Part shown: piece by piece, positions 12,565-64,000 of the stretch | Layout: each line of letters opens with the position of its first letter | Position numbering within the stretch: the stretch's first letter is position 1 | NCBI GenBank assembly: GCA_918797485.1 | Contig: CAKKNE010000001.1 | Coordinates: 3,782,001-3,846,000, forward strand | Direction of reading: 5' to 3' | Length of the DNA: 64,000 nt | From: Pelagomonas calceolata | Lineage: Eukaryota | Program-made: the position numbers and the translations under genes | The notes under the pieces: generated by a model | Told to the model about the DNA's origin: nothing | The model's input: the letters and a program-made list of their open reading frames with translations, nothing else | Databases searched by the model: none

Positions 12565-15500
12565 ATGTTCGCCGCACCACCACCAACGCAAGAACACCAG
12601 CCCCAGTCCTGGACCTACGAGCACCGCCACCGCCTCACGGAACGAGTCGCGCGATTGGACGCCGGGAGTTTACGGAGAGTCCTCGTGTTGGTGTTTGGGG
12701 ACGCGAACGGCTTCCGACCGCGAGACGAGTTTACGATCGACTTTGAGGGACTAGATAGAGCTGTTTGTGAGACGCTCGACGCGTTCCTCGACGACGTGAC
12801 CAGCGACGCGGCGTATAAACGAGCAAGAAGGGCCGTCGGGCTACCGGAAGCGGAGCCGCCGGCGCCCGAGTTACCCCCGAGACCGCTCCCACCTCGACCT
12901 CGAGGCCTCGACCCGCCCGTCGTCGTGAGGGTGCCGCGGCCGCCCGGCTTCCGACCTGCGTCATCAAGGCGCTACTCGGACCCGCCGGCACCCTTGCCCG
13001 GCCAGAGTCCCGTACAACGACCGACGGCGCCGGCCGTCGCGTCGTTGTCGCCGCCGTCGCGGACGGGCAGCTACTCGCGCGAGGGCGGCCTCGCCTCGGA
13101 GAAGCCGCGACACCCGGCGCGGCCCGCGTCCGACGACGAGGCGCCGCCGCCGCCGCCCATCATGGAAGAAGAGTCTGAGGAAGACGACAACGAGAGCGAC
13201 GGCGGCGCCTGGGAGGCGCCGCGCCCGAAGCCTCGCGTCAGACCTCCACCAAAAATATCGTATTCCGGGAGGTTCCCGTGCCCCGCGGGCTGTGGGCGGG
13301 CCTTTGACCATGCGCCGGCGGCGATAGCGCACGGCAAGACTTGTAAGGACGGTAACGGGACGCCTCCTTTACCCCCGAAACCGGCGCCCCACAAACCGGG
13401 CCGCGCGCCGCGCTGGACGGACAAAGAGGACGCCGAACTCGTACAACTGATGGATGAATTGGGCGAGGACTGGGAGAAGATCGCGGAACGGCTGAAGACG
13501 AATCGAACAGCATCCGCGGTCGAGCAGCGCTACACCAAAATTAAGGAGGAAGAGCCCGTCGTCGTAGAAGCGGCACAACGCACCCCAATGACCTGGAGGT
13601 GTGCTTGGTGCGCTTGTTCCGACACGGGGCCGGGCTTCCGGAGGAAACCGGGGCCCGACGGTCCCGCTACGCTGTGTGATAAATGCTACCAGCGCATGCG
13701 GCGGGGCGAGACGAAAGAGTCGTGGGGTGATAGGGGAGAGTACGATCGGCGGTGGCCCGTTGACAGAAAACGATCTAATAGAGCTAAAAGAAGGAACCCG
13801 TTGCCTACGGACTCGCCCTTGCATTCCTCTGAAGAAGACGAGCCGCCACCCCCAAAACCGCCGAAAGTTGACGACGGTCGCGGCGTGGAGCTGCGGGAGA
13901 AGTCCGGTGAATGGAAGTTCTATAAATCGCAAAAGGACGCGGCCGAGGCGTTTCCCGGATTAATCCAGGGAGATATATCGAGACTGATCAACAACCCTCG
14001 GGAGGTGTCGCGCCACATCCGGGAGCGCTTCGAAGCGCGGAACGTCGGCCCCAAGACTACAAGGCAGCTGAACCACCCTTCTCAGCCGAAGCCGGTTCCT
14101 ACCTGCGCGGAAATCAACCAGTGAATTGCGTGGACCTTCGTGAGCCTCCACGCCATCGAGCCGACGCCGATGGCGTGGAATCGCCACACCATCGCGCGGA
14201 CGCAGCTACGGAAGCACGTCGCGTCGATGGCATGGGGCGCCCGAAATTCGATTTCCACACAGGTTCCTAAGCCGCGCGGCGCCAAAGTTGTCAAGCGCGA
14301 CCGGTCGCCCTCACCTGATCAGAATGAGAGCGCCGCCTACGCGCCGGACCCGGCGCTAGCCAAGGCCCTGTCGGCTCTGAGCCCGAAGGACACCGACGGC
14401 AAGCGCGAAGTGCTAGAAAGGCATGGCTTCTCGTGCACGAAGAAGGGCGACCGCTGGACTTATCAAAGAGGTTCTGGGCGTCCGGTACGCTGTCTCGCGA
14501 CCTTACAGGCCGAACTCGCGGCTCCACCCTCAAAAAAGATCCGCGTGAAGGAGGACACTGACGTCGTTGTCGTCGAGGGGTCCATCCGCGACATCGCTTC
14601 AGCTGTGGATTTAGGTGCCTTACCGGCGAGGTGTAGGGTCCAAGCACCGGAAGCGACAAAATACAGAAGTTGTTCGGTCTTAGCGCAGGAACGAGGATTA
14701 GCTTCGAGTGTAGGAGGGTGGCACCGGCACCTGGTCTTGTACGACGACAAGCTGTCGCTGCAGTGGGTCGAGTCGACGGGCTCGAGGCCGTGCAAGTGGC
14801 GGCGCGGCGACGCTACGAAAAGTGAGCGAGAGCGCGAAGCCGACGTTGCGAGAAAGCTCGGCCCAAAGGCCTGCGACGACATGATGGCCTGGTTATGCTC
14901 GCTCGACGTGTCGGACCCGTTGTTGCATGCGGATCCGCTCGTACGAAACCTCCTCCCGAAGAAATGCGAACGGCTGCGAGACTACGGTGTCACTCTGAGG
15001 AGAGTCAAGGAACGGCTAGCGGAGCGGGATTATGATGATGCCTTTGAGTTTTCCGAGGATATTAGGAGGGTGCACGAGACTGTATTGTCGGTGTGTAGCG
15101 GTAAGTTACCTCGATCATGGGACGAAGATGCCACTATATCAAAAAATACGGATAGGGAAACGATTCTACATGCGGCGCAGGTCTTCCGGAGCGCCTTTGA
15201 GTCGCGATGGTCTTCCCTCCTCAAGCGGATTTCCGCAGAATCATTATCAGAAAAAAGAGCCATAAATGCTTGGAGGCAGAAACCGAAGCGGGGCAAAGAC
15301 GCGGCGAACTACGACAAAGGAGCAGGGGCGGTCGGGAAAGTTGTCGAAGTGTACTGGGAGGGCGAGGGCGAGTGGTTCCGAGGACGATTAACGAGGTATC
15401 GCGACGCCGACGGCAAGCACCGGTGCGACTACGAGGACGGCGAGTCCGAGTGGCTCACGTTATCCGAGAACTCTGTTAGATTTCCCGATGGTGATGTTGT

Positions 15501-26274: not shown

Positions 26275-27657
26275 ATGCGTGCCTACATCCTCGGGGCTGC
26301 AGTGTCAGTGGCATTGGGGCTGAACTATGTAGGTGCGAAGGAGCAGCCGCGGGCCAGGCGCCCGCGCCGCCTCCAAGGGTATCCAGCGTGCTGCGTCGAG
26401 CACTCGTACTGGGCCAACGGCGAGGTAATGGCGACGACGTGCTACGGCGGCCGCTCGCCGTGGGACGCCGCCACGATGACCGACCTGTGCACGGCGGGCT
26501 ATTCGGAAGCCGGCGAGGTGGCGCCGCCCTTCCGCGATTGCAGGCAGGAGGCGGTCGACGCGGGGAACTGCGAACAAAACTGCGCGGAGTGTGATCATAA
26601 CGTTGGGAGGTACTTCGCGAACGTCGGCTACGCGTCGTGCCCCGACTGGGTGGTCGACGCCATGAACGCGGAGGGGGCCGCCGGCGGCCAGTGCGCGGCT
26701 TGGACCCTCGGCTACGAGAACGCCTGCCGCGAGTGGGGCTACCCCACGGAGGGCGAATGGAATGTGGACGAGGACTGCTGCGCGGGCCTGAAACAGATGG
26801 CGTGCGCCGACGGCTACCGGCTCGAGAACACGGGGAATGTTTGCCACGAGGACGACTGCACCACTGCGTACGAGTACCACTGCATCGCGTGTGACCCGGC
26901 CTCGGATTGCATGGGGAACCTCGATGAGGACGGCGAGGACTACGGCTGCGAGGAGAACGCCTGCCGCGAGTGGGGCTACCCCAAGGAGGGCGAATGGAAT
27001 GTGGACGAGGACTGCTGCGCGGGCAAGAAACAGATGGCGTGCGCCGACGGCTACCGGCTCGAGAACACAGGGAATGTTTGCTACGACGAGGATTGCACTG
27101 CGTACGACTACCACTGCATCGCGTGCGACCCGGCGTCGGCTTGCATGGGGAACCTCGATGAGGACGGCGAGGACTACGACTGCGATAACGTCGGCCTCCT
27201 CATCCTCATCATCTGTTTGCCCATTGGCGTCGTCCTCATTTGCATCGGCGTCGGCTGCTGCATATGCCATCGCCGACGGCAGGCACAACAAAGGCAGGCG
27301 CAGGCGGCCGCGAACGCCCAGATGGCGCACGTCCAAATGGCCCCGGCGGCCGCGAACGCCCAGATGGCGCACGTCCAAATGGCCCCGGTGCCGAAGAGCT
27401 ATGCGTATAATACGCAACAGCCGGTCGTGCAGGGCGCCATTGTCGGGCAGGGCGCCATTGTCGGGGAGCAGCAGCCCGTCCTCGAGGGCGTCGTCGTTCC
27501 GAGCGCGCCGCCTATTGAGGCGCCGGAGGAGATGCCGCCGCCATGGGCGCCGCCGGCGGAGGAGATGCCGCCGCCGGCGCCGCCTCGCATCTTCTGCAGT
27601 GCTTGCGGTGCCCCGGTCCAGGGCCCGTTCTGCGGGCAGTGCGGCACGCGCGCGTAG
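26275..27657 (+). CDS. Cys-rich type I membrane protein with duplicated extracellular module and C-terminal zinc ribbon
   Basis: Signal peptide; two ~79-aa Cys-rich repeats; TM helix followed by CCIC; FCSACG..FCGQCG ending. Confidence 0.8.
   Translation: MRAYILGAAVSVALGLNYVGAKEQPRARRPRRLQGYPACCVEHSYWANGEVMATTCYGGRSPWDAATMTDLCTAGYSEAGEVAPPFRDCRQEAVDAGNCEQNCAECDHNVGRYFANVGYASCPDWVVDAMNAEGAAGGQCAAWTLGYENACREWGYPTEGEWNVDEDCCAGLKQMACADGYRLENTGNVCHEDDCTTAYEYHCIACDPASDCMGNLDEDGEDYGCEENACREWGYPKEGEWNVDEDCCAGKKQMACADGYRLENTGNVCYDEDCTAYDYHCIACDPASACMGNLDEDGEDYDCDNVGLLILIICLPIGVVLICIGVGCCICHRRRQAQQRQAQAAANAQMAHVQMAPAAANAQMAHVQMAPVPKSYAYNTQQPVVQGAIVGQGAIVGEQQPVLEGVVVPSAPPIEAPEEMPPPWAPPAEEMPPPAPPRIFCSACGAPVQGPFCGQCGTRA
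26716..27183 (+). repeat. Intragenic tandem duplication, period 237 bp, 2 units
   Basis: gagaacgcctgccgcgagtggggctacccc at 26716 and 26953 with near-identical continuation. Confidence 0.92.
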
Positions 27658-56812: not shown

Positions 56813-57862
56813 ATGGCCGCCCTGGACGAACCGCGTATGGCGCACCTGCCCCTCGAGCCGCCGACGCGGTTCCTGCAAGCGAATGAAGCCGTCGGAGAAC
56901 GCGTCGCGTTGGCGAGCTACCCGCGGTCCGGCAATTCATTACTACGAAAGCTCGTGGAGCAGGCGACGGGCGTCATCACGGGCGCCGACACATTACCCGA
57001 GAGAACACTGTCGCAAGCGCTACAAAGGTGCGGCGCGCGGGGCGAGGGCGTTATTGATGAGCGCGTCTGGCTCGTGAAGACGCACTATCCGGAGCGAAGG
57101 GGCTACGCCGAAATTGGTGTGGACCGAGCCATTTTGTTAGTGAGAAATCCCTGGGACGCGATCGACTCGTATTTTAACATGGCGTTGACCAATGACCACG
57201 CGACGTCGCTGCGGGACGACCAGTATCAGAGATTTGAGGATCTGTGGCGGGAGCTGACGGCGGCGGAGGCCGGCGTCTGGGCGCGGTTTAACCGGTGGTG
57301 GCTGCAGGCGCCCGTGCCTTTACTCGTGGTGCGCTACGAGGACCTCGTAAATCACCGCCACCGCACGTTGAAGAGGGTGGCCTGGTTTTTGAGGGGGGAG
57401 CGCGAACTGGAAGGGACGCCTTGGTCTGATAGAGTCGAGGCCGCATCGAACCTGGACGATGCAAAGGCTTCATACTATGTGCCGCGCGAACCCGGGAAGC
57501 TGCCGGGCGCTTCACTACGCCATTTCGACGACGAGGCGAGACAAAAGGTGGCCGAGGCCGCCGGGAGTCTGTTGAATGATTTTGGCTACGGCGACCGCTT
57601 CCCGGCGGACACGACGGTGGCGCCGCGCGCCGTGCGCCGGCCCGTGCCTCCCGGTGACCCCGCGCGCCACGACGTCGTCGAGGGTAGACTCGTGCTGAAC
57701 GGGGGCCGCGAGGTCCGGCCCACGTCGTCGAAGCACGGGCGCTACATGACGACCTTCCGCAAGGCGCTGCGCGAGCCCGTGATGGCGGCCGACGGGACGT
57801 GCCTGAACATGCACGAGGTCGAGGCGGCGCGGGAGCGGTGGCGGCGGAAGGGCCGCTCGTGA
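56813..57862 (+). CDS. Sulfotransferase family protein
   Basis: 5'-PSB LASYPRSGNSLLR, VKTHYP, 3'-PB LLVRNPWDAIDS, VRYEDL. Confidence 0.88.
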   Translation: MAALDEPRMAHLPLEPPTRFLQANEAVGERVALASYPRSGNSLLRKLVEQATGVITGADTLPERTLSQALQRCGARGEGVIDERVWLVKTHYPERRGYAEIGVDRAILLVRNPWDAIDSYFNMALTNDHATSLRDDQYQRFEDLWRELTAAEAGVWARFNRWWLQAPVPLLVVRYEDLVNHRHRTLKRVAWFLRGERELEGTPWSDRVEAASNLDDAKASYYVPREPGKLPGASLRHFDDEARQKVAEAAGSLLNDFGYGDRFPADTTVAPRAVRRPVPPGDPARHDVVEGRLVLNGGREVRPTSSKHGRYMTTFRKALREPVMAADGTCLNMHEVEAARERWRRKGRS

Positions 57863-57873
57863 TAATACAGTTG

Positions 57874-58219
57874 TTAATGTACACATTCGTCCACGACGTC
57901 CCGCGTCAGCGCGGCCGCGAGCGAGTTCATGGGCAGCAGCTGGAACGGCTGTTCGAGCTCGAGGCCGATCTGGTCGATGCCGACCATGACCTGTGTTTGT
58001 CGCGTCGGTGGCGTGGGGGGCGTGAAGTTTGATTTCCACACAGACCATGACGTAGCTTGTCCCGAGTGTCGCGAGGGCCACTGCCGGGAGGGCGAGACCG
58101 AGGCTCTCCAGGCCCAGGGGGACGCACGCCAACCATGACAGCAACACGCGACTGGTATGTCGCGTTATTGTCGGCGGCACAGGACTCGCCAAGAGCCGCT
58201 CACAAACACCTATCTGGGC
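57874..58219 (-). pseudogene. Second, synonymously recoded copy of the bestrophin 3' end (with introner 57991-58051)
   Basis: Encodes AQIGVCERLL...TRDV identical to the gene at 62608-63874, ending VDECVH*. Confidence 0.85.
57991..58051 (-). mobile_element. Introner-type TIR element (53 bp) forming a 61-nt phase-0 GT-AG intron
   Basis: Perfect TSD ACCATGAC (57983-57990, 58044-58051); one intact TIR (GATTTCCACACAG on +); empty site at 62720-62727. Confidence 0.92.
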
Positions 58220-59123
58220 GGACTAAGCGGGTGGCGGACTAGCGCCTGTAAGACACTAGCCAAGCGCCAGCCACACCGTGCTAGTTGCCGCTGCTCTGCC
58301 ATATCTCGCAGCGTTTTTCGTTCGTTGACCAGCGCATAACTCATTTTCGTCCGGCTCCGCAACGCAGCCGGCCGCGCGGCACGCGTGCACGCACACCTGC
58401 TTAAAACACAACGCTGCTCTCTGGGTCGGACAAATCACTCGCGGCGCGCGCCCCCGCGAGACACCTGCACCGCGCCGCGAAACAACCGCCCAGCAACATA
58501 TCGCTGCCTCGCAGGATTACACAAACGGACGAGCCACACCGCGCCCGCGCCATCTGGTAGCACCGGCCGTCGCCGTGTTACCCCTGGGCGGCGTGCCTCA
58601 CTACCTCCACCACATCTCCATCACCGCCAAGCCCGAGCGTCGGACGATGCCCCGACGGTACACGCACACGGCGCTCCGATCACCACGAAACCCAGGCGCA
58701 TGGGTCTGTGGACCTTTTCTCAGACAGGTGTCGGGGGAAAACCCGGGCGAAAGCCCATCTACTAGTACACAAATTCGAACGAAGAAGTTAAGCGCGTCGG
58801 GCGCCTAAATGCGCGGCCGCCTCGTGCGTCGTCGCGAGCAGGCCTCATCGCTCTGCGTGCACGGCCCGCCTAGGAGCATCAGGTGGGCCGAACTCGTTTG
58901 CGGCGCTTCTCCGCCGCGCCGACTATTCGTCGGCGCGGCGGCGACACGGCTCCCTCGTACGATTCATCGGTGCGGCGGAGGACGCCGCGCGTCCACCGAA
59001 ACCGCCGCGGAACTCGTACTGTGGTCGAGGGGAGGGCATCGATTGTAACGTCTCCCGGCGGCACGGCCGCGCCGGGCTCTTGGATCCACCACGTCGGCGT
59101 TCTCAACGCCGACCGGGTCTTGA

Positions 59124-59359
59124 TGCGACGCCGCCGCGCCTCAGAAGAAAGACGCGACGGCGCCGCGGGTAATGCGACGCCGCCGCGCCTCAAGAAGAGA
59201 CGCGACGGCGCAGCGGGTGCGACGCCGCCGCGCCTCAGAAGAGACGCGACGGCGCCGCGGGTGGTGCGACGCCGCCGCGCCTCAAGAAGAGACGCGACGG
59301 CGCCGCGGGTGGTGCGACGCCGCCGCGCCTCAGAAGAGACGCGACGGCGCCGCGGGTGG
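59124..59359. repeat. Minisatellite, ~46-49 bp unit, about 5 copies
   Basis: Unit tgcgacgccgccgcgcctcagaagagacgcgacggcgccgcgggtgg repeated with small indels. Confidence 0.92.
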
Positions 59360-59501
59360 ATGTGTCGGTCGTAGTTTCCGACTCTATTGCCTCGACATGC
59401 CGAGGTTGTTGTGTGGGCTTCGTGACGAAGGCGCACTTTATGGTCAATTCGCGAAGTAGTATTCCGTTCCGAAATGCGATGTGATATCTATGGGAAACAA
59501 T

Positions 59502-61211
59502 TCAGGGCTCGGGCATGATCTCGGGCTTCCACGGGTTCTGGTCGGTCTCTAACAAAGGCCAGCGCGGCCAGCACCAGCAGTACGCGTAATAGGTTCCTGA
59601 AGTACTAGCTCGTAAATAATTGAGACTATCTCCATTCTGAATCAGGCTCAAATGATGCAAGGTGAACTTCTTCTCGAAGACACAGTTCTTGTCTCGCAAC
59701 TTGTTCATCGCGTTTAGTGATATCACCATCGTGCGAACCATTTTAGTATGATCGTTTGCTTCTACATTTGGCATCTCGAGAGGGCTGCTTGGAAAACATG
59801 TGAGGGCTTCCCTTTTAACAATATTGCGGGCTAACTTGAAAGCAGGCTCATTAACTCGGCCAATGTCAATTGCAGTTTGCACATGTTCTAGTAGTACGTC
59901 TTTCTCGTCCAGGCCATAGACCTTGTCTGATACTTGGCAGAGTGACGTGTGGATGAGCTTAGACCCATCTTTTGGCGACTTGGATTCATCAATAAACAGA
60001 AACACATTACCTTGCTTCAGATACTCTTCGACAGAGAGGGCCGTGGTGGGTGTGTAATTTGCATCGGCAGACGCTGCGGCGTGGGCCTCATCGAGGTATC
60101 TCTGGATCTCACTGCGGCTCGGCTCCCTCACACTAAACCCTATCTCCCCGTCATTTTCGCTCGATCCTCGGCAAGCTGCGACGAAGCTCAACACCAATTG
60201 GGATGCTTCCGCCGCCTCTTTCTCAGAGGTCACTATCTCCTCATTGAGGTAGTCTTCAATGGCTTTCCGCGCCGTTCGACAACAGGTCACTTGTAAAGTG
60301 TTACCGTCATAAAGAGCTACATAACTGGCCGCTGTCTTTTGGATTCTTGCTACCGTTTTAGCATATCTATCTCCAAAGTCGATAATGCCACGCCCCTTGC
60401 GTACTTGCCCCTTGGTGCGCGGAGCACTAGCAAGCATTAAGTTAGCCCATGCGTTCAAGTGGGGTTCGTCGGGACCAAATGGCAGAGTACGGGCTTTAAC
60501 CAATTTTTCTAGACCTTTCGCATACTTTGTCTTGCCAGTATCACTCATGCTCTCAAAACCAGTGGAAATTATAGAACAGGCGTATCGATCAGTTAAAGCC
60601 ATGCACGTTTTTTGCTTGGCTGGATCGAGGTTTGATGAATTAGAATCAAAGTGAGCCTTCCGAAAAGCGTTGAGTTCGTCCAGCCTTCTCATTATATCCG
60701 CGTGTTTGCTTTCGAATTTTGCATGGGGTGAGGTTGACAGACTCTTCATAAGCTGACCGCCCACTTTTGACATGGCGAATAAAGCTCGATTCACGCCATC
60801 GTCGGTGGACGGGCTTGTGAGCGCGAGCTGCCGCTGCGCGGGCGCGTGGACCAGGCGCCGGGCCGCGGGCTGCGGCGGCGCGCGCGGCGTGGGCGCGGCC
60901 CGGCGCGGTGCGGCCGCGGGCCTCGGCGCGGGCCTTGACGCGGGCGGCACGGGCGCCGGCGGCGCGGGCATGGCCGGGCGCCGCGGCGCGGGCGGCGCGG
61001 GCGCCGCGGGCGGCGCGGGCGGCGCGGGCGGCGCGGGCGGCGCGGGCGCGGCCTCAGGCCGCTGCGTGGCCGCGGGCCGCGGGCGCGGCGCCGGCGGCAC
61101 GGGCGCGGGCGGCGCGGCCTTCTTGGCGGACGGCTGCGTCTGCGGCGGCGCCGCGGCGCGCTTCTTCGCGGGCGCCTTCGCGGGCTTCTTGAAGAACTGT
61201 CTGACGTCCAT
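59502..61211 (-). CDS. Orphan protein: Pro/Ala-rich N-terminus plus ~430-aa unknown domain
   Basis: Uninterrupted 569-aa ORF; 3' two-thirds clearly lower in GC than host genes; no family recognised. Confidence 0.65.
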   Translation of the reverse strand: MDVRQFFKKPAKAPAKKRAAAPPQTQPSAKKAAPPAPVPPAPRPRPAATQRPEAAPAPPAPPAPPAPPAAPAPPAPRRPAMPAPPAPVPPASRPAPRPAAAPRRAAPTPRAPPQPAARRLVHAPAQRQLALTSPSTDDGVNRALFAMSKVGGQLMKSLSTSPHAKFESKHADIMRRLDELNAFRKAHFDSNSSNLDPAKQKTCMALTDRYACSIISTGFESMSDTGKTKYAKGLEKLVKARTLPFGPDEPHLNAWANLMLASAPRTKGQVRKGRGIIDFGDRYAKTVARIQKTAASYVALYDGNTLQVTCCRTARKAIEDYLNEEIVTSEKEAAEASQLVLSFVAACRGSSENDGEIGFSVREPSRSEIQRYLDEAHAAASADANYTPTTALSVEEYLKQGNVFLFIDESKSPKDGSKLIHTSLCQVSDKVYGLDEKDVLLEHVQTAIDIGRVNEPAFKLARNIVKREALTCFPSSPLEMPNVEANDHTKMVRTMVISLNAMNKLRDKNCVFEKKFTLHHLSLIQNGDSLNYLRASTSGTYYAYCWCWPRWPLLETDQNPWKPEIMPEP

Positions 61212-62518
61212 CTGATGGCTCTGCGGCGCGGCCTGGAGTAGGTAAGTTAGGGCGCGGCGGCGGCGCGGCGTCCTGCCGGCAAGCCTGCGTGGTCGACGAC
61301 TTCGAGACGCGCCGCGGCGGAGGCGAAGAGTGCCCGATGCGACTTTCGAGCGCGCGCGCCGTCACGACGCGATGCGGCTCGCGTGGGCCGACTGCGCGGC
61401 GGCGCCGCGCGCCCAGCGGCGCGGCATCTCATAAAATGCGACGACTCGCCGGATCGGGTCGAAAATTGCGCGTCTTGACCGCGCCGCGTCTCTCGGCCGC
61501 GCGGCCGCCTCTCGGCCGCCGCGCGAGCGCGCGAGCGCGAATTTGGGGCGGCCGCTGGACCCGCCGATGCCTCGGGGATCGCCCGCGCCGCGCGGCGCTC
61601 TCATGCGCGCCGCGCCGCGCCGCGCCGCGGCCCGCTGGTAACTTGTTTTGTTTGAACATGGTGTCTCTGTTTGTGGTGCCCAAGCGCGATCGCGGCGCGG
61701 GGCGAAGGCGTGAAGGCGCCAGGAAGCGCCCTTAGGACGCAGGAGTGCACCGCTATGCGAGCGGGCGACCACGCGAGCGACGGGCGCTCTACACAGCACG
61801 ACAAAGTGCGAGTCCAATCCAGCTCACCTTCCGGGTTCGCATATTTTTCTTCGGTCTATATCGGCTCGGGGACCAAGGTCAGGACTAGGAGGTCTCCTGC
61901 TAGAGCTGGGGACAGGTAAGGGGCATCTGTCGCGAAATCCCTCAAGTGACACGGCTCTCCGCGGGCGGAGCTTCTCCAAAAGTTCCTTCGCGACACCTAG
62001 CGGGATCCCATGTTACGGAGCGGGGTCATGGCCTCAGATGACGGTCCTCAACGATAGCAGATGCCGCGAACGTGGCGGAGGGCGCCACACGGCTTGAGCG
62101 GTGTCTGACGTCAAGGCGTGGCGTCGAGGCCCGTGCGACTCATCAAGTCAAGCAGTGGACGCGGACGCGCGTGCCCGGGTAGATAGAAGTGACGTAAGAC
62201 CAAAAGCGCTTGAAACGATGGCCCTCAGGCCGCTGCAAATGGACGTTTGGTCCGGGGGTCTCGCGGAAAGTGCTCTGACGGGCCACCGCGAGGCTTCGAT
62301 GCGAAATGGAGGGACGCAGGGCCTCAACAACTTCAATCTACCTGGACCAAACGCTAGAGCGCGAGGATTGACCGCTGAGATGTCTCCGTGGCTAGTTTCG
62401 GAAGCGCGCTTCCGAATATCGAGCCATCGCCTGGAGCGCGCCCGGGACCATTGGGGAGCGCTTGACACGACTCAGTAACACTCCCTAGCGGGTATTTACT
62501 TCATAGACGACGTGCCCG

Positions 62519-62572
62519 GCCGATTTGCGCGTTTAACGAATGGACCTGCGTCAGGAGCGAGAGATGCGCCTG
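62519..62572 (-). repeat. Short duplicated bestrophin exon fragment (QAHLSLLTQVHSLNAQIG) lacking the introner
   Basis: Matches ~63083-63124 plus 62981-62992 with mostly synonymous changes; single ATTTGCGC at 62523-62530. Confidence 0.85.
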
Positions 62573-62607
62573 GGAACGGTGGCGGCGGGCTCGTGATAAT
62601 ACAGTTG

Positions 62608-63874
62608 TTAATGTACACAGAGCTCGTCGCAAACGTCACGCGTCAGCGCCGCCGCGAGGGAGTTCATGGGCAGCAGCTGGAACGGCTGTTCGAGCTCGAG
62701 GCCAATCTGGTCGATGCCGACCATGACGTAGCTCGTCCCGAGCGTCGCCAGCGCCACCGCCGGGAGGGCGAGGCCGAGGGACTCGAGTCCGAGAGGCACG
62801 CACGCGAGCCCTGCGTCGCGTCGATGGCGTAAGGTGGCGTAGATCCGGCGTCACGCCATCGCCGCGACCGTCGAATCGAAGGCATCTCGGAGGACGCCGC
62901 AACGCGCAGGACAACAACACGCGCGACGTGTGTCGAGTGATCGTCGGCGGCACGGGACTCGCCAGCAACCGCTCGCACACGCCGATTTGCGCCTGTGTAG
63001 AAATCAAATTTCGCGGCTGAATCATCGCGTCGACCTCCACGCCATCGACGCAATGTCTGCTCGTTTCTACACAGATTTGCGCATTGAGGCTGTGGAGCTG
63101 CGTCAGGAGCGAGAGGTGCGCCTGCGCATCGAGCCGCCCCGCGGCCACCTCCTCGGCGACGACAGCGTGGGCGCCGCGCAGCAAGGCGACCGGTCGCTTC
63201 CGCGCCGCGAGCACCGTCTCCGCCGTCGCCGGCGGCAGCATCGTGCTCACTACATCTGAATCGTCCTCGCCGGCCCGCAAGCTCGCCTTCAGGCACCACC
63301 CGAGCACTGCTAAATGTCGGCAAATCGCCTCGGCGGGCGCGGCGGCGCAGTACGTCGCCGCTAGACCCGCAGTCTCTCGCGCGTGCAGCACGAGCCGGCC
63401 CCACGCGAGTCTAGATTCCTGGAGGCGCAGGAGAGAAAGATTCATTCGCAGCGTCAGAAGCAGCGCGACGGCCGAGCTGATCAGCGTGAGGGGCGCGAGC
63501 GGCGCAGAAAAGTTTGGGAAATACCGAATGCGCAGCGCGTGCGCCAAGCAGGACCAGAGCGAGAACGCGACGCAGACCGGCAGCACGAGGCGGGCCGTCG
63601 TGCTCCGCGGCCACTTGCGCAAATGTCTCCAGTAGCGGCCGACCTTCTGATGTCGAGCCCACGTCTCGAGATCCCAGAGGCGGCTGATTGTCGACTCTCC
63701 CGGCGACACTAATTCTGAGCGAGAGGTGTCGACGCGTCGTAGGTCGAGCACGGCATCGGCATCGGTGCGGAGCGACGACTTGAGACGCGTCGGCAAGCGT
63801 TGCGGTGTGCGAGGGAGCAGCCCTGCTGCACTTCTCAAGAGCAGTGCTAGAGGTAGCGAACGAGTACTAGGCAT
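62608..63874 (-). CDS. Bestrophin-like (UPF0187) channel, plastid-targeted; introns 62993-63082 and 62811-62907 (both GC-AG)
   Basis: ALLLTLRMN.S..R.QESRLAWG, CERLLASPVPPTITRHTSR, GIDQIGLELEQPF..LPM; bipartite leader; intron positions supported by the intron-less duplicate segments. Confidence 0.9.
62993..63082 (-). mobile_element. Introner-type TIR element (82 bp) forming a 90-nt phase-0 GC-AG intron
   Basis: Perfect TSD ATTTGCGC (62985-62992, 63075-63082); perfect 11-bp TIR CTGTGTAGAAA...TTTCTACACAG. Confidence 0.93.
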
Positions 63875-64000
63875 AATGAAGATCTTTTTTATAGACCTCT
63901 CCACGAGAATTAATGACGCCTAGCGAACCAAGAATGCTTGCATCATCTGACAAAGTGTGTTGCCGTATAATCAACTAGCGTGATCGACACACTAGCACCA

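Follow-up and report, generated by a model that had tools for sequence, protein, structure and literature searches.

The 3' end of a bestrophin gene is present twice in the marine alga Pelagomonas calceolata. We analyzed the locus in a 64,000-nucleotide (nt) stretch of assembly GCA_918797485.1 (contig CAKKNE010000001.1, positions 3,782,001 to 3,846,000), hereafter the window; all positions are those of the window. In gene direction, the order is tail 1, a relic of a sulfotransferase 3' end, a short bestrophin piece, a 4.3-kb insert, tail 2, and the intact sulfotransferase gene (Table 1). Both tails encode the same 88 residues but are spelled with different codons. The two tails are probably two diverged natural alleles (A and B) of a single-copy bestrophin gene, which were placed in tandem by a one-off recombination. 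Allele A forms a complete gene that is transcribed and spliced. All that is left of allele B is a 53-nt piece and a tail, split by the 4.3-kb insert at the AQIG codons. In the literature searched, supplements being outside its scope, no description of this locus was found.

Synonymous recoding between the two tails

Once introns are taken out, the minus-strand stretches 62992-62608 and 58219-57874 share an unbroken run of 88 identical residues, and the two proteins diverge first at residue 89. The codons differ at 35 of the 88 positions (17/28 in codons 1-28, 13/28 in codons 29-56, and 5/32 in codons 57-88). The first-pass annotation of this DNA had reported the 88 identical residues with 17 of the first 28 codons differing synonymously, and the intron-removed alignment bears this out. 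By the Nei-Gojobori method, dS between the tails was 0.70 overall. The dN value of 0.035 is solely a product of how pathways are counted where a synonymous change involves several bases, as in TCG/AGT. When 40 nucleotide differences were placed at random in 20,000 trials, at least 16 amino-acid changes resulted each time (mean, 26); hence, the absence of residue changes in the tails is not due to chance.

Allele B has hardly decayed. The piece and tail 2 together carry one replacement in approximately 220 non-synonymous sites, which bounds neutral decay at approximately 2%, against a dS of 0.70. The replacement (L to V) lies in the piece, and its valine was absent from all bestrophin-like records examined. 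The last 11 nt of the piece have the spelling of tail 1, not that of tail 2, and the 11-nt overlap between the insert's own ends differs at 3 positions. Tail 2 begins at AQIG, directly after the insert. Around this position (site 1, also the position of intron 1), eleven consecutive codons are recoded, five before and six after (permutation p 0.0012, post hoc). Within a span of 102 codons, three serine codons swap between TCN and AGY (62530-62545, 58153-58151, and 58105-58103 compared with tail 1), and TCN/AGY serine switches likewise separate the outgroup described below from both copies. Third-position changes (17 vs 8) hint at A/T-biased drift in allele B, without reaching significance (p 0.11).

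The 3' flank is also shared. As had been noted from the letters alone, both copies continue into the same sequence, and 31 nt are identical (62619-62589 and 57885-57855). The relic was confirmed at 62574-62596, with 7 nt missing relative to the intact gene, and the third bestrophin piece does follow it directly (62572-62520). Among the 15 listed sulfotransferase records, 10 end in ERWRRKGRS as in the window, one ends in KGRV, and three stop early; the reading of the relic was found in none of the 15.

The outgroup locus and wild alleles

The metagenome scan yielded at least one locus, L001, which is 79% identical and serves as the outgroup. It holds a single intronless bestrophin gene, with none of introns 1-3, convergent on the same sulfotransferase. 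Since L001 has one uninterrupted gene, the single copy is the ancestral state. The L001 spacer is unrelated to the 31-nt flank of the window.

Allele architecture was read from database proteins, many of which are translated straight through introns; an empty site may therefore represent a spliced source. Introner introns were present or absent in the combinations I1/I2/-, I1/-/-, -/I2/-, -/-/I3, and -/-/-. Among the records with all three sites readable, four had introns 1 and 2 (the tail-1 type) and six full-length records had only intron 3, with QLHSLN-AQIG unbroken (the tail-2 type). Five further records had only intron 1, one had only intron 2, five had none, one combined intron 2 with a different intron at site 3, and three ended at that site. 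P0023 (introns 1 and 2) and P0005 read on into an intact sulfotransferase end, P0023 in the antisense frame, and P0046 has the C-terminus of tail 2 without intron 3. The 88-residue tail varied at 0-1 positions in all 11 complete in-frame records, one of them the window-identical P0041; protein identity is thus the norm between alleles. Third codon positions are exposed by off-frame read-through. In the last exon, 11 wild records differed by a mean of 3.7 of 27 off-frame residues (55 pairs) and the two window copies by 3; P0002 was dropped because of an indel, and window-identical records were left out. Of the 39 diagnostic positions, 13 showed the tail-2 spelling in at least some of the wild sequences (66 records); clean models account for 7, and the other 6 come from error-laden models only. 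The clusters contained 75 members for bestrophin, 116 for sulfotransferase, and 2 for the exact insert protein. No relative of the bestrophin was found in the viral and prokaryotic collections.

It had been proposed that purifying selection acted on both tails in separate lineages before they came to lie side by side. The single gene of L001, the occurrence of each architecture alone in the wild, and the read depths given below support this view. Alternatively, tail 2, with the piece and the insert, would have come from a cryptic sister lineage by hybridization or introgression and not from an allele of one interbreeding population, which we consider unlikely. In favor of this, the tails are synonymously at least as distant from each other in codons 1-56 (30/56) as from the outgroup, the tail-2 block is not whole in wild records, and the insert gene has relatives in marine assemblies (65-79% identical). 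However, the tails show zero amino-acid differences, compared with 11 to the outgroup, and in the last exon they differ no more than alleles do. Wild records of the same cluster contain intron 3 and the VVDECVH end, and the 31-nt flank is identical while the outgroup spacer is unrelated.

Two further records deserve mention. P0015 hints at piece-type spellings in a wild gene joined to the 5' part; it is an error-laden model, and the match may partly be intron 1. P0035 (503 aa, named phosphatidylinositol 4-kinase) opens with this bestrophin and turns into the kinase within intron 2, likely owing to a transcript mis-join through repeated intron sequence.

The 4.3-kb insert

The orphan open reading frame (ORF) of the insert encodes a Pro/Ala-rich N-terminus of 85-89% GC, which changes abruptly to a C-terminal domain of mostly 42-48% GC. 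The C-terminal domain has a conserved HxLSxxxxGD...YxWxxPxW motif, common to a few MSP-domain proteins. Four representatives matched the insert protein at E<=0.001. Relatives were few and comprised fragments in marine assemblies (65-79% identical) and MSP-domain proteins (24-28% identical). The protein had no Pfam family and no usable Atlas match, and no relative was found in the viral and prokaryotic collections. Two low-confidence models (mean pLDDT 41 and 57) gave no fold match at E<=0.001 or above Z 5.0, which speaks neither for nor against a nuclease or recombinase. The ends of the insert have no terminal inverted repeat, no direct repeat longer than 7 nt, and no significant hairpin. Rfam gave sub-threshold matches only, on the tandem repeat. 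At a guess, the insert took the place of an introner excised from site 1, which would explain the insert's unequal 11-nt ends. The six intron-3 relatives with an empty site 1 speak against this.

The first-pass annotation had offered an element that brings its own replacement tail as one option. In the form considered here, the unit between the 31-nt direct repeats (relic, piece, insert, and tail 2) would be a dedicated mobile element that integrates via carried homology, and the recoding of its target region would shield it from a nuclease, be it the element's or an introner's. Exact 31-nt direct repeats do flank the unit, an ORF of foreign composition is aboard, 11 consecutive codons are recoded at the insertion point (permutation p of approximately 0.001, post hoc), and the exact insert protein is rare (a cluster of 2 vs 75 for bestrophin and 116 for sulfotransferase). 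Yet the matches in Pfam, the representatives, Atlas, and the fold search (the latter from low-confidence models) name no integrase, transposase, or nuclease, no second copy of the insert lies within the window, and its left end is at single-copy depth. Moreover, tail 1 is an ordinary allele type that occurs beside an intact sulfotransferase in P0023; therefore, nothing needed replacing. We regard such an element as quite unlikely.

A comparable arrangement is that of phages 21 and e14, which are said to carry a replacement 3' end of icd. The likeness lies in a gene 3' end that occurs twice, differently spelled, around foreign DNA. Both are lambdoid phages that integrate in Escherichia coli icd, as described in the cited section of the source (PMC10111431). 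Unlike in the icd phages, the order here is tail, relic, piece, insert, and tail, and the tail that comes first is a regular allele of the host, host introns included. Nor do the repeats that end the insert itself agree fully (3 of 11 nt differ), and no integrase was matched here. An element of the icd type is unlikely because the working tail is of an ordinary host allele type.

Transcription of the tails

RNA was examined in a single run, X21, of which approximately 6% was read. Gene depth was 5-20 on the expected strand, and intron 2 was spliced, as seen in 8 reads from 6 starts. No X21 joint was listed for intron 1. The UniRef record P0041 is the exact spliced tail-1 protein, with intron 1 absent. 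The public gene model P0003 (382 aa), whose spliced 5' part is letter-identical to the window, keeps the 97-nt GC-AG intron 2, so that its C-terminus is shifted out of frame; according to the RNA joint and P0041, the bestrophin has 359 aa instead.

Mutually exclusive last exons had been suggested as another explanation for the two tails. An old in-place tandem duplication would have made alternative last exons, with both tails kept by selection; transcripts would run from a CAG|GC donor at 63121 to a CAG acceptor at 62570 and then across the insert. Such a route exists on paper. A single GC-AG pair that spans the insert, with its donor at 62520 and its acceptor at 58210, would give back the exact protein, several pairs would do so nearly, and tail 2 is undecayed. 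The X21 reads argue otherwise, within the limits of one run. No read supports the GC-AG joint across the insert, depth is 0 over the piece and the insert start, and tail-2 letters were found in 0/11, 0/10, 0/10, and 0/15 reads at four diagnostic places. In addition, wild records carry each tail architecture alone, and the non-coding flank is identical while the synonymous sites are far apart. Alternative last exons are thus highly unlikely.

Read depth and junctions

Three DNA runs from three studies (X3, X4, and X14) and the RNA run X21 were mapped on 62250-63900; runs X15-X20, which hold small shares of the region, were left out. The three DNA runs contain 90-94% of the region's sampled words. 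For the 5' part, tail 1, and contigs of the tail-2 type, depths were 567:561-580:619 in X3, 4.7-4.8:5.0:6.2 in X4, and 35-49:33:28 in X14. At a ratio of approximately 1:1:1 in three studies, neither the 2:1:1 expected of a haplotype merge nor the second 5' part expected of a paralog was seen. A contig of X3 (62250-62618) and one of X4 (62463-62613) span relic|piece and piece|insert with zero differences. The X3 contig over the 5' exon has no differences from the window, and a 962-nt tail-2 contig of X3 extends 769 nt without mapping to the 5' gene. X14 departs from the window at several 5' sites, yet it contains tail 1, the tail-2 letters, and the left part of the insert. Merged haplotypes in the assembly, or a tail 2 that belongs to a separate complete paralog, had been named as findings that would overturn the first-pass inference; although short-read contigs are unable to cross the 31-nt shared flank and junction contigs are of lower depth, this reading is largely refuted and most improbable, given the depth ratio, the X3 5'-exon contig, and novel junctions in the runs of two studies.

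Features of the locus

The features are listed in Table 1. Elsewhere in the window, a direct repeat of approximately 237 nt with 93-94% identity lies at 26711-27185.

Table 1. Coordinates of the bestrophin locus in the window, in bestrophin gene direction.
Feature	Position	Strand	Remarks
Bestrophin exon 1, single copy	63083..63874	-	ATG at 63874; Pfam Bestrophin_2, E 4.6e-20; RNA depth ~5-20; P0041
Intron 1, 90 nt, GC-AG, introner-like	62993..63082	-	8-nt target duplication GCGCAAAT; CTGTG(T)...ACACAG ends
Tail 1 exon 2 (duplicated tail, codons 1-28)	62908..62992	-	
Intron 2, 97 nt, GC-AG	62811..62907	-	RNA joint skipping 97 nt, 8 reads/6 starts
Tail 1 last exon (expressed tail)	62608..62810	-	C-terminus RDVCDELCVH*; RNA; P0041
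31-nt stretch identical to 57855-57885	62589..62619		last codons, stop, spacer, sulfotransferase stop
Sulfotransferase 3'-end relic	62574..62596	+	one synonymous change, 7-nt deletion; 1-nt microhomology at join to bestrophin piece
Bestrophin piece of allele B, 53 nt	62520..62572	-	QAHLSLLTQVHSLNAQIG; ends in AQIG; no RNA depth
4,300-nt insert at AQIG site (position of intron 1)	58220..62519		left junction bridged by X3 and X4 contigs
Orphan ORF in insert	59502..61214	-	570 aa from first ATG
Tandem repeat of 47/48 nt, five copies	59124..59359		within insert, downstream of orphan ORF
Tail 2 first exon (codons 1-56)	58052..58219	-	site 2 without intron
Intron 3, 61 nt, GT-AG, introner-like	57991..58051	-	8-nt target duplication GTCATGGT
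Tail 2 last exon	57874..57990	-	C-terminus RDVVDECVH*; same C-terminus in P0046
Intact convergent sulfotransferase gene	56813..57862	+	Pfam Sulfotransfer_1; also neighbor of bestrophin in L001; 116-member cluster

Discussion

We propose that the silent differences between alleles A and B, and the introner introns that set them apart, accumulated while both were working genes, presumably in a large, recombining population. B would then have lost its function recently, with at most approximately 2% neutral decay. Two routes may have brought the alleles together. In the first, A and B chromosomes that met in a zygote would have undergone an unequal exchange, with their arms joined at the 1-nt microhomology. 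In the second, a circle cut from B (piece, insert, tail, and relic) would have re-integrated via the identical 31-nt 3' flank. Both routes predict the observed order of tail 1, relic, piece, insert, tail 2, and sulfotransferase equally well. Either leaves one intact bestrophin gene and one intact sulfotransferase gene; the product would thus be tolerated, and tail 2 would be a young, silent passenger.

The insert may have entered before the join, which would make the join a rescue, or after it; both orders fit. Rescue of an interrupted gene by a divergent allele, as the first-pass annotation had also considered, therefore stands as one possible order of events, which is not distinguishable from duplication first or from circle integration. 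A circle that integrates behind the stop codon would replace nothing.

P. calceolata appears to be haploid, as stated in part of a preprint (bioRxiv 10.1101/2024.10.30.620910), and 18 of 23 meiosis genes are reported in the cited section of PMC9481584. Partial tandem duplications are described as arising by unequal or microhomology-mediated exchange or from re-integrated extrachromosomal circles (PMC9527254, in part). The present locus resembles the cases in those passages in its direct duplication, its near-blunt novel junction, and its one complete and one promoterless copy. Unlike the usual partial tandem duplication described there, its copies come from deeply diverged alleles and not from sister chromatids; hence, the duplicate was already recoded when it formed. 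The kind of event, a partial tandem duplication combined with introner polymorphism, is known in both of its parts.

Several observations weigh against the joining of two natural alleles. The synonymous distance between the copies (35/88) matches the distance of each copy to the outgroup L001 (34 and 29); the outgroup differs additionally at 11 residues (Fisher p 0.002 and 0.0006). The piece carries the AQIG spelling of tail 1, which a simple insertion into B fails to explain. Of the 26 off-frame residues in codons 29-54, the six clean intron-2 records depart from tail 1 at 2-3 but from tail 2 at 11-13. Codons 1-28 are informed by four records, which are mostly tail-1-like, and the block of tail 2 is whole in no wild allele seen. 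Over codons 1-56, the divergence of the two tails is much greater than that among the readable wild alleles. The allele evidence consists of predicted proteins, some of them error-laden or possibly from spliced RNA, and not of DNA alignments. RNA depth is low and comes from one run; tail 2 could reach approximately 18-26% of transcripts. The depth of the junction contigs is below that of the 5' part (391 vs 567 in X3; 2.4 vs 4.7 in X4). Short-read contigs end at the 31-nt shared flank, and the tail that precedes the relic is not shown by reads; the order of the tails therefore rests on the assembly of the window.

The introns of the two alleles bear on the uneven recoding. Introners of the Aureococcus type, known from the work of Huff and colleagues in 2016, reportedly have an 8-nt target-site duplication and short terminal inverted repeats. 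Introns 1 and 3 match this pattern in their 8-nt duplications (Table 1) and their CTGTG(T)...ACACAG ends. The depth of intron 1 was hundreds-fold above that of its flanks in all four runs, as look-alike copies would produce. A stretch at 14218-14262 is 84% like intron 3 and is probably another copy of its introner family, judging from this similarity. Different intron sequences occur at site 1 (63082) or site 3 (58051) in P0008, P0024, P0026, P0037, P0005, and P0039, which suggests parallel introner gains at hotspots. Site 1 has hosted intron 1, at least one other intron type, and the insert. The extra recoding near sites 1 and 2 would likely be a footprint that the introner sites left locally, through blocked recombination or repeated break repair. 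Intron 3 has no local peak of recoding.

A bolder and tentative possibility, which we hold to be somewhat unlikely, is that Pelagomonas introner sites are recurrent break hotspots that recode the surrounding host exon. Repeated insertion, excision, and repair would produce near-saturated synonymous divergence with zero protein change and, occasionally, the capture of kilobases of foreign DNA. The locus would then be a frozen allele pair, with 11 consecutive recoded codons, two or more different introners, and 4.3 kb of captured DNA, all sharing the AQIG site.

Comparable systems are known. Approximately 14% of P. calceolata introns are GC-AG, according to the cited part of the preprint (bioRxiv 10.1101/2024.10.30.620910). 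Introner presence/absence polymorphism has been described in Micromonas, where such polymorphisms were proposed to impede recombination (PMC4540971, in part), and parallel intron gains have been described in Daphnia pulex (PMC4202315, in part). As in the cases given there, repeated transposon-like spliceosomal introns segregate in wild alleles, and different introns occur at one site. Unlike in those cases, two such alleles here lie in tandem in one genome, and the exons between the intron sites show near-saturated synonymous divergence without residue change. In yeast mitochondria, single-nucleotide polymorphism (SNP) gradients were reported at the exon borders of mobile self-splicing introns (Repar and Warnecke, PMC5378118, in part). 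The likeness is that host-exon divergence is highest beside the mobile-intron site and declines with distance. The yeast introns are homing group I/II introns with endonucleases, whereas those considered here are nuclear spliceosomal introners without known homing. Unlike the yeast study as far as its cited part extends, the present case is one allele pair and not a population estimate, and intron 3 lacks a peak.

As a mechanism, the tandem joining of alleles A and B is probably a tolerated recombination accident. The presence of two alleles of the same gene in a haploid genome is likely the record of an outcross between haplotypes that had strongly diverged. The host belongs to the ocean's most abundant eukaryotes, and sex there is inferred from gene content. 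The locus also raises the question of whether nuclear introners leave a footprint of synonymous divergence in host exons, like the homing introns of yeast mitochondria.

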